A model generated the notes under the pieces. That model did not search any database. It was not told the DNA's origin and saw only the letters and a list, made by a program, of their open reading frames with translations. A program made the translations under genes and the position numbers. Shown piece by piece: positions 26,100-46,413 of a stretch of DNA of 64,000 nucleotides. Positions within the stretch are counted from its first letter, which is position 1. Each line of letters begins with the position of its first letter. The stretch is from Escherichia coli (GTDB lineage Bacteria > Pseudomonadota > Gammaproteobacteria > Enterobacterales > Enterobacteriaceae), in NCBI RefSeq assembly GCF_046105845.1, contig NZ_CP151004.1; one strand, written 5' to 3'.

Positions 26100-26962
26100 C
26101 GCTGTGTCTCCAGCCAGTTCAGCCACTGGTCCATCCCTTCGCCGCTGGTGGCGGAAATAAGGATGATTTCAATTTCTGGATTGACTTCGCGGGCGCAGGC
26201 GATGCACTTCTCAACGTCAAAGTTGAGATACGGCAACAGGTCAACTTTGTTGAGCAGCATCAGCGAGGCGGCGGCAAACATATGCGGATATTTCAGCGGT
26301 TTGTCTTCACCTTCGGTAACGGAAAGCACCGCCACTTTGTGTTTTTCACCGAGATCGAAGCTGGCCGGGCATACAAGGTTGCCAACGTTTTCGATAAACA
26401 GAATACCGTTATCGTCCAGTGGCAGACGCGGTGCGGCGTCGGCAATCATCTGTGCGTCAAGATGGCAGCCTTTACCGGTGTTCACCTGAATCGCTGGTGT
26501 GCCGGTAGCGCGAATGCGTGCGGCATCGTTCACGGTTTGCTGGTCGCCTTCAATAACCGCGCACGGAACGCTGTCTTTCAGGCGCATTAAGGTTTCCGTC
26601 AGCAGGGTGGTTTTACCGGAACCAGGGCTGGAAACCAGGTTGAGCACCAGTTGCTTGCGGGCAGCAAAGCGCGCGCGGTTGCGTTCAGCCAGACGGTTAT
26701 TTTTGTCCAGCACGTCAATTTCGACTTCCAGCATCCGACGCTGGCTCATGCCCGGCGCGTGAGTGCCCGCTTCGCCATGACCGTAATGCAGGTCGCCTTC
26801 TTCAGTCTGGCTGGGGGTAAATTCAGGCGCTTTAATGCCGGTGATTTTCATCTTCGGGCGTGCCGCCGGGGCAAATGGCGCGCTACGAAACGCGGAATGA
26901 GGGTTATGTTCATCACCCTCAATATAGAGGTTGCCTTCACCGCAACCGCATGTTGTACACAT
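26090..26962 (-). CDS. hypB: Hydrogenase nickel-insertion GTPase HypB
   Basis: 290-aa [13 protein letters not shown]… with His-rich stretch and GTPase motifs (GSGKTTLL). Confidence 0.93.
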
Positions 26963-26965
26963 CGC

Positions 26966-27316
26966 TCACTCCTGGTCTATTTCTATCCGCCGAATCTGTA
27001 AACCGTCGTCTGCCACAATCTGTAGCATGTCACCATGACACTGTGGACAGCGGCGGACGCGCTGGGTCAGTAGCGTCACATACTGTTGGCATGTTTCACA
27101 CCAGCATTCGGCCTCTTGTTCTTCGAGGTGCAGTTTACAACCTTCCGCCACGCTGCCGCGGCAAACCAGATCAAAACAAAAGGCAAGAGAGCTGGTTTCG
27201 ACACAAGAAAATGCGCCAATTTTGAGCCAGACCCCAGTTACGCGTTTTGCGCCGTGTTTTGCGGCCTGCTGTTCGATCAATTCCAGTGCCCGTTGGCAGA
27301 GGGTTATTTCGTGCAT
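26966..27316 (-). CDS. hypA: Hydrogenase nickel-insertion protein HypA
   Basis: Internal ATG of track ORF gives MHEITLCQRALELIEQQA… (116 aa) with zinc-binding CxxC…CxxC. Confidence 0.92.
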   Translation of the reverse strand: MHEITLCQRALELIEQQAAKHGAKRVTGVWLKIGAFSCVETSSLAFCFDLVCRGSVAEGCKLHLEEQEAECWCETCQQYVTLLTQRVRRCPQCHGDMLQIVADDGLQIRRIEIDQE

Positions 27317-27347
27317 ATCGCCTCCCATTAACTATTGCCAGCTACAA

Positions 27348-27362
27348 GCAATAATTGTGCCA
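27348..27362 (-). promoter_or_regulatory. Candidate sigma54 promoter of the hyp operon
   Basis: Minus strand reads TGGCACAATTATTGC, with GG and GC at the -24/-12 spacing; about 32 nt upstream of the hypA start. Coordinates approximate. Confidence 0.45.
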
Positions 27363-27475
27363 GTGTTGATTATCCCTGCAGTGAATAATGTCGATGATGT
27401 CGAAATGACACGTCGACACGGCGACGAAATTCATCTTTAGCTTAAAAATCGCTTTAATAACAATGAATTAAAAGT

Positions 27476-27491
27476 TGGCACAGAAAATGCT
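27476..27491 (+). promoter_or_regulatory. Candidate sigma54 promoter of the hyc operon
   Basis: TGGCACAGAAAATGCT with GG/GC at the -24/-12 spacing; about 37 nt upstream of the hycA ATG. The FhlA-activated hyc operon is known to be sigma54-dependent. Confidence 0.55.
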
Positions 27492-27527
27492 TAAAGCTGG
27501 CATCTCTGTTAAACGGGTAACCTGACA

Positions 27528-27989
27528 ATGACTATTTGGGAAATAAGCGAGAAAGCCGATTACATCGCACAGCGGCATCGTCGCCTACAGGACCAGTGGC
27601 ACATCTACTGCAATTCGCTGGTTCAGGGGATCACGTTATCGAAAGCGCGCCTGCATCACGCCATGAGCTGCGCGCCGGACAAAGAACTCTGTTTCGTCCT
27701 TTTTGAACATTTTCGTATTTACGTCACCCTGGCGGATGGCTTTAACAGCCACACCATCGAGTATTACGTCGAAACAAAAGATGGTGAAGACAAACAGCGG
27801 ATTGCGCAGGCGCAACTGAGCATTGACGGCATGATTGATGGCAAGGTCAACATCCGCGATCGCGAACAGGTTCTGGAACACTATCTCGAAAAAATCGCTG
27901 GCGTTTACGACAGCTTATACACCGCCATTGAAAACAATGTGCCGGTGAATTTAAGCCAACTGGTAAAGGGACAAAGCCCGGCAGCATGA
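27528..27989 (+). CDS. hycA: Formate hydrogenlyase regulatory protein HycA
   Basis: 153-aa ORF MTIWEISEKADYIAQRHRRLQDQWHIY…, recognised as HycA. Confidence 0.92.
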   Translation: MTIWEISEKADYIAQRHRRLQDQWHIYCNSLVQGITLSKARLHHAMSCAPDKELCFVLFEHFRIYVTLADGFNSHTIEYYVETKDGEDKQRIAQAQLSIDGMIDGKVNIRDREQVLEHYLEKIAGVYDSLYTAIENNVPVNLSQLVKGQSPAA

Positions 27990-28049
27990 GCTGAGGCTTT
28001 GCCCGTTTTGCAGGCGTTACGCCTGTTTGGGGATGGGCGTGTCGATGAG

Positions 28050-28094
28050 TGTCGAAAATGACATTTTATCGGCATGTTTTCGTCAAAAATGACA
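28050..28094. promoter_or_regulatory. Two copies of a TCGAAAATGACA-like motif in the hycA-hycB spacer (candidate FhlA upstream activating sequence)
   Basis: TGTCGAAAATGACA (about 28050..28063) and CGTCAAAAATGACA (about 28081..28094); a related GTCGAAATGACACGTCGAC motif sits in the hyp-hyc intergenic region near 27390..27410. Confidence 0.35.
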
Positions 28095-28113
28095 ATCACC
28101 TGAGGAATGCCTG

Positions 28114-28725
28114 GTGAATCGTTTTGTAATTGCTGACTCCACGCTCTGTATCGGCTGCCACACCTGTGAGGCCGCCTGTTCAGAGACGCATCGCCAGCAC
28201 GGCCTGCAATCAATGCCGCGCCTGCGAGTGATGCTCAATGAAAAAGAATCTGCGCCGCAGCTCTGTCACCACTGTGAAGATGCGCCCTGTGCGGTGGTTT
28301 GCCCGGTTAACGCCATCACCCGCGTTGATGGGGCCGTGCAGTTAAATGAAAGTCTGTGCGTAAGCTGCAAACTGTGCGGCATCGCCTGCCCGTTTGGCGC
28401 AATTGAATTTTCCGGCAGCCGTCCGCTGGATATTCCGGCAAATGCCAATACCCCGAAAGCGCCACCGGCACCGCCTGCTCCGGCGCGTGTCAGCACATTG
28501 CTTGACTGGGTGCCAGGTATTCGCGCGATCGCCGTCAAATGTGACCTTTGTAGTTTTGATGAACAAGGTCCGGCCTGCGTGCGGATGTGCCCGACTAAAG
28601 CCCTGCATCTGGTGGATAACACCGATATCGCCCGCGTCAGCAAACGTAAGCGTGAGCTGACTTTTAACACGGACTTTGGCGATCTCACCTTGTTTCAGCA
28701 GGCTCAAAGTGGAGAGGCTAAATGA
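28114..28725 (+). CDS. hycB: Formate hydrogenlyase 4Fe-4S ferredoxin subunit HycB
   Basis: 203-aa ORF with four CxxCxxCxxxCP clusters; GTG start per ORF track. Confidence 0.92.
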   Translation: MNRFVIADSTLCIGCHTCEAACSETHRQHGLQSMPRLRVMLNEKESAPQLCHHCEDAPCAVVCPVNAITRVDGAVQLNESLCVSCKLCGIACPFGAIEFSGSRPLDIPANANTPKAPPAPPAPARVSTLLDWVPGIRAIAVKCDLCSFDEQGPACVRMCPTKALHLVDNTDIARVSKRKRELTFNTDFGDLTLFQQAQSGEAK

Positions 28726-40523: not shown

Positions 40524-40537
40524 ACATTGTCATCACA

Positions 40538-40571
40538 TGTCATCGTCACTAGTGTCGATGACATCGTTTTT
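40538..40571 (+). terminator. Hairpin plus T-run after ascG (candidate terminator, or regulatory inverted repeat upstream of hydN)
   Basis: Near-perfect 24-26-bp inverted repeat TGTCATCGTCACTAGTGTCGATGACA followed by TCGTTTTT, about 15 nt after the ascG stop and about 100 nt before hydN. Confidence 0.4.
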
Positions 40572-40671
40572 CCTGCATTACAGAATTTAATTTCTTTAAA
40601 TAACAGTAAATTAAAAACTGGCATGATTTGTGAATGTATCGGCGCATTAACTGTCATTGCTGGAGAATTTG

Positions 40672-46357: not shown

Positions 46358-46413
46358 GTCAAAATGACTATCAATCAAATGGTCGATATGACAATATCTA
46401 TAGTCAAATTGAC
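46358..46413. promoter_or_regulatory. Three NorR binding sites (GT-N7-AC) in the norR-norV intergenic region
   Basis: GTCAAAATGAC (46358..46368), GTCGATATGAC (46382..46392), GTCAAATTGAC (46403..46413), matching the NorR enhancer architecture I recall. Confidence 0.6.

Follow-up and report, generated by a model that had tools for sequence, protein, structure and literature searches.

Remote or shared enhancers are a familiar feature of sigma-54 activators, as illustrated by NtrC at glnA and ZraR at the divergent zraP/zraSR genes. In such systems, palindromic sites act at a distance and in either orientation through looping, and one intergenic enhancer can serve divergent promoters. Closest to the locus described here are the FhlA upstream activating sequences (UASs) of the formate regulon (fdhF, hydN-hypF, hyc and hyp), which belong to the same organism, include the locus itself and each accompany a sigma-54 promoter. 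That the hyp-hyc divergon pairs two FhlA enhancers with a divergent couple of sigma-54 promoters has been part of the E. coli literature since the 1990s; of its two enhancer regions, IR1 is taken to serve hyc and IR2, the second UAS beyond hycA, to serve hyp. In studies by Lutz (1990), Hopper (1994) and Leonhartsberger (2000), formate- and FhlA-dependent activation was reportedly lost on mutation of the sites, and IR2 was needed for hyp.

The genes listed as FhlA targets are hyc, hyp, hydN(-hypF) and fdhF, and according to a secondary source FhlA is a tetramer that touches one side of the DNA and has binding sites upstream of fdhF and hyc (PMC11291172). A consensus for its sites, CATTTCGTACGAAATG (Leonhartsberger 2000), is quoted in PMC4987338 and PMC11197473. 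A further comparison is offered by the NorR enhancer of norVW (PMC2831303), which lies at 46358-46413 of the 64-kb window (the whole stretch of DNA that was analysed). It resembles IR1 in its 11-bp core, GTCRAWWTGAC, and in being coupled to a sigma-54 promoter with IHF, for which the site near IR1 is putative, and NorR resembles the FhlA system in carrying a GAF domain. It differs in its activator, in its nitric oxide (NO) signal and in its three equally spaced simple repeats, as opposed to the extended, TGWCGA-flanked palindromes of FhlA.

The region studied stretches over hypA<-IR1->hycA-IR2-hycB on the E. coli chromosome. It is 99.9% identical to the hypA/hycA/hycB region annotated in E. 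coli genomes, where the genes stand in the same order, so that the gene names given in an earlier note on this DNA are correct, and it is contained in 5425 of 5426 genomes. The RefSeq annotation of the locus holds no binding features. The earlier note had also pointed to three motif strings, and these were found in place: GTCGAAATGACACGTCGAC in the hypA-hycA spacer (27399-27417), and TCGAAAATGACA (28052-28063) and TCAAAAATGACA (28083-28094) in the hycA-hycB spacer. The features of the locus are collected in Table 1.

Table 1. Coordinates in the window of the genes, promoters and putative regulatory sites of the hyp-hyc divergon and of the hydN comparator.
Feature	Position	Strand	Sequence, basis or remarks
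hypA CDS, first gene of hypABCDE-fhlA	26966..27316	-	ORF and RefSeq annotation of a 99.9% identical genome
hyp sigma-54 promoter, -24/-12	27347..27362	-	TGGCACAATTATTGCT; 0 mismatches; inferred start ~27336
IR1, putative upstream activating sequence	27389..27418	.	Imperfect 30-bp palindrome TGTCGATGATGTC-GAAAT-GACACGTCGACA
IR1 core	27398-27410		TGTCGAAATGACA; contains the motif of the earlier note
Possible third IR1 half-site	27421..27434	.	GCGACGAAATTCA, with CGAAAT; read from sequence
IHF-like site	27458..27470	+	TAACAATGAATTA; between IR1 and hyc promoter; 1 mismatch to WATCAANNNNTTR
hyc sigma-54 promoter	27476..27491	+	TGGCACAGAAAATGCT; 1 consensus mismatch; inferred start ~27502
hycA CDS (FhlA antagonist), between IR1 and IR2	27528..27989	+	ORF and annotated relatives
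IR2a, imperfect palindrome	28040..28074	.	TGTCGATGAGTGTC-GAAAAT-GACATTTTATCGGCA; sequence and conservation
IR2a core	28050-28063		TGTCGAAAATGACA
IR2b	28077..28094	.	TTTTCGTCAAAAATGACA; region's best match to the quoted FhlA consensus
hycB CDS, GTG start	28114..28725	+	ORF and annotation; GAGGA ribosome-binding site 28103-28107
hydN upstream region (comparator)	40528..40566	.	TGTCATCACATGTCATCGTCACTAGTGTCGATGACATCG; TGTCGATGA common to IR1 and IR2a
hydN sigma-54 promoter	40618..40634	+	CTGGCATGATTTGTGAA; identical to ChIP-seq motif OS26 (PMC4591121)

We consider it highly probable that IR1 and IR2 are the two FhlA enhancer regions of the hyp-hyc divergon and serve its divergent sigma-54 promoters; FhlA is the presumed protein bound there. 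IR1 would act from between the back-to-back promoters: its centre precedes the inferred hyc start by ~98 bp, and a putative IHF-type bend site lies between the two. IR2 (28040-28094, made of IR2a and IR2b) would act from a position within the transcribed hyc operon that lies ~700-750 bp upstream of where hyp transcription is inferred to start. Once loaded with formate, FhlA oligomers would bind the TGTCG-(A)n-TGACA cores together with the flanking TGWCGA arms, reach promoter-bound sigma-54 RNA polymerase through DNA looping and open the promoters by ATP hydrolysis. The arrangement is best read as already known and as ordinary textbook regulation, as the earlier note had held: the locus is the E. 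coli hyp-hyc divergon, its motif blocks are conserved, and it has features in common with the hydN and fdhF upstream regions. From the rest of the FhlA regulon it shows no difference in kind. IR2 is nevertheless unusual there, being ~700 bp away from the hyp promoter and embedded in the hyc transcription unit, and to place a second enhancer past the opposite operon's first gene is a peculiarity of hyp-hyc.

Both candidate sigma-54 promoters put forward earlier proved to be the best consensus matches in the window and equal to ChIP-seq motifs (PMC4591121). The hyp promoter, the sole perfect TGGCAC-N5-TTGCW match in the window, is identical to motif OS28 for hypA, and the hyc promoter equals the K-12 motif OS27 except that position 27483, in the spacer, has G in place of A (PMC4591121). 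Sigma-54 motifs of hypA and hycA have been described in Salmonella as well (PMC3844500), and in the orthologous sequences GCA-N7-TGCCA of the hyp promoter and TGGCA-N7-TGC of the hyc promoter are each kept in 81/81. Another sigma-54-like site, inside hycA, was rejected: it is due to conserved W-[HRQ]-x-Y-C codons, and a mix of TGC and TGT there adds no constraint. The IHF-like site is not distinctive by scanning, since WATCAANNNNTTR gave 56 matches in the window against 47 expected, with the E. coli site carrying one mismatch; at its position the family consensus reads aaAtcAa....tTaAAa, in agreement with WATCAANNNNTTR, and the exact match occurs in 27/81 sequences.

Related motifs on either side of hycA had likewise been claimed, and the likeness turned out to be longer than stated. 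The 8-mer AAATGACA occurs five times on both strands of the window (2.45 expected from shuffles), and three of the five copies fall within 692 bp at hycA, where ~0.03 would be expected at the shuffle rate. The pattern GTC[AG]AAA(A)[CT]?TGAC has five window matches against 0.20 expected, namely the IR1, IR2a and IR2b sites, one NorR site and one position inside hypB. IR1 at 27389-27410 (TGTCGATGA-TGTCGAAA-TGACA) agrees with IR2a at 28040-28063 (TGTCGATGAGTGTCGAAAATGACA) in 22/24 positions, differing by two 1-nt gaps. When an IR2a profile HMM built solely from orthologues of 70 non-Escherichia species was run against the window, IR1 was the second-best match (15.5 bits, E 0.0015), and the next reached 6.8 bits (E 0.86). 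By sequence comparison, IR1 and IR2a are paralogous to each other.

Across 80 Enterobacteriaceae loci from ~15 genera, the motif blocks stand out as phylogenetic footprints, with identities of 0.83-0.97 compared with 0.28-0.51 in neighbouring non-coding DNA, which points to purifying selection on the sites where the operon layout is kept. For IR1, a palindrome of 12 pairs with one wobble and one bulge, column identity is 0.83 vs 0.37-0.38 in the flanks, and CGAdATGACA is present in 71/81 orthologous sequences. For IR2a it is 0.86 vs 0.28 upstream, and TGTCGA-N3-5-TGTCG is found in 75/78 sequences. IR2b is more tightly constrained than any other element of the locus, including both sigma-54 promoters: its column identity is 0.97 and its 16-mer TTTCGTCAAAAATGAC is exact in 74 of 78 distinct sequences, and in 63 of these it ends 20 nt ahead of the hycB start. 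The third half-site of IR1 (GTCGAAA) is partially conserved, in the Escherichia/Salmonella/Citrobacter group only, and can be put forward as such only tentatively. Short ORFs that would begin with the ATG in AAAATGACA were rejected, as spacer lengths vary by 1 nt between genera and the reading frame is not conserved.

Spacing follows the helix as well. The distance from IR1 to the hyc -24 element falls into classes of 43, 54-57, 65-66 and 77-79, that from the hyp -24 element to IR1 into classes of 18, 28-30, 40-42 and 52-53, and that from IR2a to IR2b into classes of 25-29 and 37-38. Such classes, ~11 bp apart, are as expected of a face-of-helix enhancer, and since this spacing is conserved from IR1 to both promoters, IR1 may contribute to hyp in addition to hyc. 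Within IR2a, the four tetramers TGTC/TGTC/GACA/GGCA start 10, 10 and 11 bp apart, in agreement with the one-side contact described for the FhlA tetramer (PMC11291172). A model of binding to one face suits IR1 less well, its four tetramers being spaced at 9, 9 and 8 bp.

A scan with the quoted consensus at up to 3 mismatches gave one unrelated match in the window (49223), and neither IR1 nor IR2a. IR2b (GTTTTCGTCAAAAATG) agrees with the consensus in 11/16 positions, among the top 16 of 1163 70-bp windows, and IR1 in 9/16 with one exact half-site, CGAAATG; a score of 9/16 is reached by ~30% of background 70-bp windows. Consensus variants with an extra base per half singled out IR2b alone. As a discriminator the quoted consensus was rejected, because the upstream regions of fdhF and hydN, both known to be FhlA-regulated, score merely 9/16. 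By density of the TGWCR pentamer, the top three places in the 64 kb are the hydN upstream region (the densest, in a 60-bp window), IR2 and IR1, and at the K-12 fdhF locus the densest window is the fdhF upstream region. The FhlA UASs are alike in being clusters of TGWCR units whose cores read TGTCG-(A)n-TGACA or GTCA-AAAC-TGAC; the hydN upstream region has TGTCGATGA(C) in common with IR1 and IR2a, and GTCAAAACTGAC is present at fdhF. The long IR1/IR2a block is not part of this likeness: nhmmer profiles of IR1, IR2a and IR2b gave only weak matches (<=5 bits) in the fdhF, hyfA and hydN upstream regions, which makes the block a property of IR1 and IR2a in particular, not a general matrix for FhlA. 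The quoted consensus is unusable for genome scans, and the practical value of the present result lies in annotation, as the family alignment sharpens the site bounds from the quoted 16 bp to ~30-bp palindromes, TGWCGA-N3-4-TGWC-GAAA(A)T-GACA-N2-5-TCGWCA, plus the invariant TTTCGTCAAAAATGAC.

The strongest competing explanation, which we still judge improbable, is that IR2a is mainly an RNA element, a hairpin in the hycA-hycB mRNA acting on stability, processing, attenuation or hycB translation, with its likeness to IR1 being secondary. The RNA of 28036-28125 indeed folds at -32.6 kcal/mol (z = -4.45; 0/200 shuffles as stable), the hairpin is kept in most genera even where its right arm has a different sequence, and in 63/73 sequences the sense strand folds more stably than the antisense, by a mean of 4.8 kcal/mol. 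Within the arms, 80.7% of cells are paired, 48 cells are compensatory compared with 23.6 +/- 3.6 in shuffles, and G.U-type pairs outnumber A.C-type pairs by 120 to 28. However, any DNA palindrome folds well as RNA, and IR1, which lies between divergent starts and in neither mRNA, behaves in much the same way as a control, with 76.4% of cells paired, 47 compensatory cells vs 28 +/- 5 and a covariation score of 0.204 vs 0.158. The strand bias of IR1 is opposite to that of IR2a, and the biases in strand and in G.U pairs can both be traced to which of the two arms is degenerate, since in IR2a it is G and T that abound in the conserved arm. Of the hairpin, only the 4-bp TGTC/GACA stems remain in the consensus fold, a Rfam scan of 26900-28600 gave no family match and two sub-threshold chance hits, and no terminator-like site was called at IR2a. 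Because the untranscribed palindrome yields equal covariation statistics, we set the hairpin aside and retain IR2a as a probable FhlA enhancer site.

Even less credible is the proposal that NorR recognizes the GT-N7-AC core of IR1, alongside FhlA or in its place, which would link formate hydrogenlyase expression to nitric oxide. The core GTCGAAATGAC does fit NorR GT-N7-AC and shares its 11-bp shape with all three NorR sites of the window. It is one base away from site 1 (GTCAAAATGAC, 46358-46368) and from site 2 (GTCGATATGAC, 46383-46393), both experimentally defined (PMC2831303), and in some species GTCGATATGACA occurs in IR1 itself. As the IR1 core fits the NorR consensus too, sequence alone cannot name the bound protein. 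At norV, however, all three NorR sites are required (PMC2831303), whereas IR1 has a single N7 core and stands beside the hyc and hyp genes, documented targets of FhlA; the spacing in IR2a and IR2b is N8 and not N7, and the C-terminal DNA-binding regions of FhlA and NorR share 29% identity in a gapped alignment. No NorR-hyc link was found in the literature examined. Finally, chance similarity of A/T-rich spacer DNA without shared function deserves next to no credence: the 8-mer alone is not rare (11/100 shuffles reach five copies) and the window shows no enrichment of the 14-mer when 3 mismatches are allowed, but three copies within 692 bp, a likeness of IR1 to IR2a reaching 22/24, the cross-genus HMM, near-invariance over ~15 genera with poorly conserved flanks and the enrichment of the pattern refute it.

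With IR1 and IR2 read as FhlA enhancers, the near-invariance of IR2b, its fixed distance from hycB and its place inside the hyc transcript suggest that IR2 may have a further role beyond that of a remote hyp enhancer. FhlA bound there might make hyc elongation or hycB translation depend on its occupancy, for instance by acting as a roadblock or through an RNA-level switch, and separately the GT-N7-AC core might allow cross-talk between NO and formate; both ideas are speculative and we regard them as unlikely. An internal sigma-54 promoter for hycB was sought in 28094-28200, and no GG-N10-GC of the right spacing was present. For hycA deletions designed for hydrogen production, IR2 should be left intact, since it borders the hycB ribosome-binding site and is probably what drives the hyp maturation genes.

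hycA is flanked by two related elements: IR1, a candidate upstream activating sequence for the formate-sensing sigma-54 activator FhlA in the spacer between the divergent hypA and hycA, and IR2, a second candidate FhlA enhancer in the hycA-hycB spacer, which is made of the palindrome IR2a and the site IR2b. The three strings read by the earlier note as FhlA sites are all present (GTCGAAATGACACGTCGAC at 27399-27417, TCGAAAATGACA at 28052-28063 and TCAAAAATGACA at 28083-28094), and their relatedness is stronger than it had proposed. Two single-base gaps are the only differences between IR1 TGTCGATGA-TGTCGAAA-TGACA (27389-27410) and IR2a TGTCGATGAGTGTCGAAAATGACA (28040-28063). A profile HMM of IR2a, built from 70 non-Escherichia orthologues to avoid circularity and run over both strands of the whole window, placed IR2a at the top (E 2e-6), followed by IR1 (15.5 bits, E 0.0015), with only 6.8 bits (E 0.86) for the third match. 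Furthermore, AAATGACA occurs five times in 64 kb against 2.45 expected, three of these inside 692 bp, and a window scan with GTC[AG]AAA(A)[CT]?TGAC gave five matches against 0.20 expected. Another match to the FhlA/NorR-like core pattern, GTCGAAATTGAC within the hypB coding sequence (26714-26725, minus strand), is probably due to chance.

Annotated E. coli chromosomes match the 1-kb stretch around the motifs at 99.9% identity, and 5425 of 5426 complete genomes contain it. According to annotation and ORFs, the locus has hypBCDE-fhlA on its left and hycC-I, ascBFG, hydN-hypF and norVW-norR on its right. From 27317 to 28113, eight positions differ from K-12 MG1655, none of them in a motif core; 28067 separates IR2a from IR2b as part of their spacer, and 27483 belongs to the spacer of the hyc promoter. 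The hyp and hyc sigma-54 promoters are the best window matches to TGGCAC-N5-TTGCW; K-12 ChIP-seq assigns these same sequences to hypA and hycA (PMC4591121), and Salmonella has equivalents of both (PMC3844500). Judging from the -12 elements, transcription would start at ~27336 (hyp) and ~27502 (hyc), placing the centre of IR1 ~68 bp and ~98 bp away, respectively. Given its position in the hycA-hycB spacer, IR2 lies within the hyc transcription unit, ~700-750 bp upstream of the hyp start.

Features of the hyp-hyc region and the norR-norV spacer
Feature	Position	Strand	Description
hypA	27316..26966	-	annotation and ORFs
hyp sigma-54 promoter	27347-27362	-	0 mismatches to consensus
IR1	27389-27418		imperfect palindrome, roughly 30 bp, [TGTCGATGATGTC]GAAAT[GACACGTCGACA]
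IHF-type sequence	27458-27470		between IR1 and hyc promoter; 1 mismatch in E. coli
hyc sigma-54 promoter	27476-27491	+	1 mismatch to consensus
hycA	27528..27989	+	annotation and ORFs
IR2a	28040-28074		palindrome [TGTCGATGAGTGTC]GAAAAT[GACATTTTATCGGCA]
IR2b	28077-28094		TTTTCGTCAAAAATGACA; end 20 nt before hycB GTG
hycB	from 28114	+	GTG start; annotation and ORFs
NorR site GTCAAAATGAC	46358-46368		norR-norV spacer
NorR site GTCGATATGAC	46383-46393		norR-norV spacer
NorR site GTCAAATTGAC	46403-46413		norR-norV spacer

The two promoter regions (27336-27362 and 27476-27502) are also 78% complementary over 27 nt, as an inverted repeat that extends past the -12 element; both share TGGCACA-N5-TGCTT-N3-GCTGGCA, of which the portion past -12 is not kept in other genera. 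A further sigma-54-like element inside hycA, TGGCACATCTACTGCA (27597-27612, plus strand), has the orientation of the hyc promoter, 121 bp downstream of it, and one mismatch, equal to the norV promoter. Its TGGC...TGCA skeleton is explained by conserved W-[HRQ]-x-Y-C codons, and it bears no sign of extra selection because the Cys codon alternates between TGC and TGT among species.

A single HycA scan of species-representative genomes yielded 80 loci in about 15 genera of Enterobacteriaceae, and every one of them is arranged as hypA<-IR1->hycA-IR2-hycB. The conserved parts of the alignments are only the ribosome-binding sites, the two promoters (both kept in 81/81 sequences), the IHF-like stretch (family consensus aaAtcAa....tTaAAa) and the motif blocks. 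In column identity to E. coli, the IR1 block reaches 0.83 against 0.37-0.38 in both flanks; IR2a reaches 0.86 and IR2b 0.97, compared with 0.28 for the DNA upstream and 0.51 for the spacer that separates the two. Of 78 distinct sequences, 74 carry an exact TTTCGTCAAAAATGAC. The spacers group into length classes between IR1 and the -24 element of hyc (43, 54-57, 65-66 and 77-79), between the -24 element of hyp and IR1 (18, 28-30, 40-42 and 52-53) and between IR2a and IR2b (25-29 and 37-38). Steps of about one helical turn are the pattern of a face-of-helix-dependent enhancer, which with few independent indel events is only suggestive, and they hint that IR1 may be in phase not only with the hyc promoter but also with that of hyp.

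Could IR2a instead be a specific RNA element, a hairpin in the hyc mRNA? As RNA it folds into a long hairpin (z = -4.45) that is kept in most genera, with the mRNA strand the more stable in 63 of 73 sequences, 48 compensatory cells against 23.6 +/- 3.6, and G.U combinations exceeding A.C by 120 to 28. However, IR1, which lies between the divergent starts and belongs to neither mRNA, served as a control and matches these statistics (47 against 28 +/- 5 compensatory cells; covariation 0.204 vs 0.158), so that the RNA reading is not supported. Its strand bias is opposite to that of IR2a, since the bias depends on which arm drifted, the conserved arm being G/T-rich in IR2a and A/C-rich in IR1. Together with the lack of any family match for IR2a in an Rfam search, the control shows co-evolving dyad symmetry in both enhancers rather than an element particular to RNA. 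Their arms vary jointly (palindrome alignments A1 for IR2a and A2 for IR1, 58 distinct sequences each): Escherichia TGTCGA...TCGACA corresponds to Citrobacter TGACGA...TCGTCA, and the paired variants GGG/CCC, AGG/CCT and ATG/CAT occur next to TGTC/GACA at sequence-variable positions, also in untranscribed IR1. Shared ancestry, protein preference for dyad symmetry and templated correction of quasi-palindromes are possible sources of this co-change.

The FhlA-dependent sigma-54 operons have been listed as hyc, hyp, hydN-hypF and fdhF (PMC4987338, PMC3844500), and a recent preprint's summary has FhlA binding upstream of fdhF and hyc, as a tetramer formed through its N-terminal domain whose C-terminal helix-turn-helix touches one DNA side (PMC11291172). 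The hydN upstream region (40528-40566) resembles the enhancers in carrying TGTCGATGACA and two TGTCAT units, as does that of K-12 fdhF, with GTCAAAACTGAC amid GTCAC/GACGA units. In an unbiased count of TGWCR pentamers per 60-bp window over the 64 kb, hydN, IR2 and IR1 came out as the top three, and at the fdhF locus the upstream region has the highest density of any window. In IR2a, TGTC/TGTC/GACA/GGCA start 10, 10 and 11 bp apart, a spacing that would suit an FhlA tetramer on one helix face; the spacings of 9, 9 and 8 in IR1 would be a poorer fit. The repeated motifs around hycA are confirmed and extended, and locus identity, promoter data, conservation and likeness to other FhlA-regulated regions support the FhlA reading. 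On established knowledge, FhlA would be the protein bound at these sites and IR2 the hyp enhancer. The layout of predicted FhlA enhancers with sigma-54 promoters is already known.

The motif scan used the 16-bp FhlA consensus quoted in two papers, CATTTCGTACGAAATG (PMC4987338, PMC11197473), and this consensus is a poor tool for scanning. At up to three mismatches it had one match, at an unrelated site. IR2b scored 11/16, within the top 16 of 1163 70-bp windows; IR1, which has an exact CGAAATG half-site, and the fdhF and hydN upstream regions reached only 9/16, as do ~30% of background windows.

The pattern scan also recovered the three experimentally defined enhancer sites (PMC2831303) of NorR, the NO-responsive activator of norVW, in the norR-norV spacer. 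The IR1 core GTCGAAATGAC (27399-27409) has their 11-bp shape, is one base off two of the three and agrees with the NorR GT-N7-AC, and GTCGATATGACA is present in IR1 itself in some species. The DNA-binding tails of FhlA and NorR share only 29% identity. No discussion of this overlap was found in the literature searched; it is a question of specificity, not evidence of cross-regulation.

In Klebsiella/Raoultella loci (L036, L039, L043, L058, L062, L063, L069 and L083), IR1 consists of TGTCGATGAC, a 12-16 nt insert and GTCATCGACATGTC, a build closer to the E. coli hydN upstream region than to E. coli IR1. Escherichia, Salmonella and Citrobacter carry an additional 40-60 nt between the hycA stop and IR2a (27990-28037); the distance from the stop to IR2a is 7-10 nt in most other genera. 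The E. coli segment includes a small GC hairpin and, after it, TTTGGGG (CAGGCGTTACGCCTG, 28011-28025), with a fold z-score of only -2.05. The stretch from IR2b through the hycB ribosome-binding site (28077-28113; TTTCGTCAAAAATGAC-N-ATCACCTGAGGA) is near-invariant in about 15 genera and more tightly conserved than the sigma-54 promoters, its distance to the hycB start being fixed at 20 nt in 63 of 78 sequences. Here E. coli UCACC (28096-28100) could pair with GGUGA across the hycB GUG start codon, and other genera point to an alternative pairing, GUCC/GGAC, across the ribosome-binding site.
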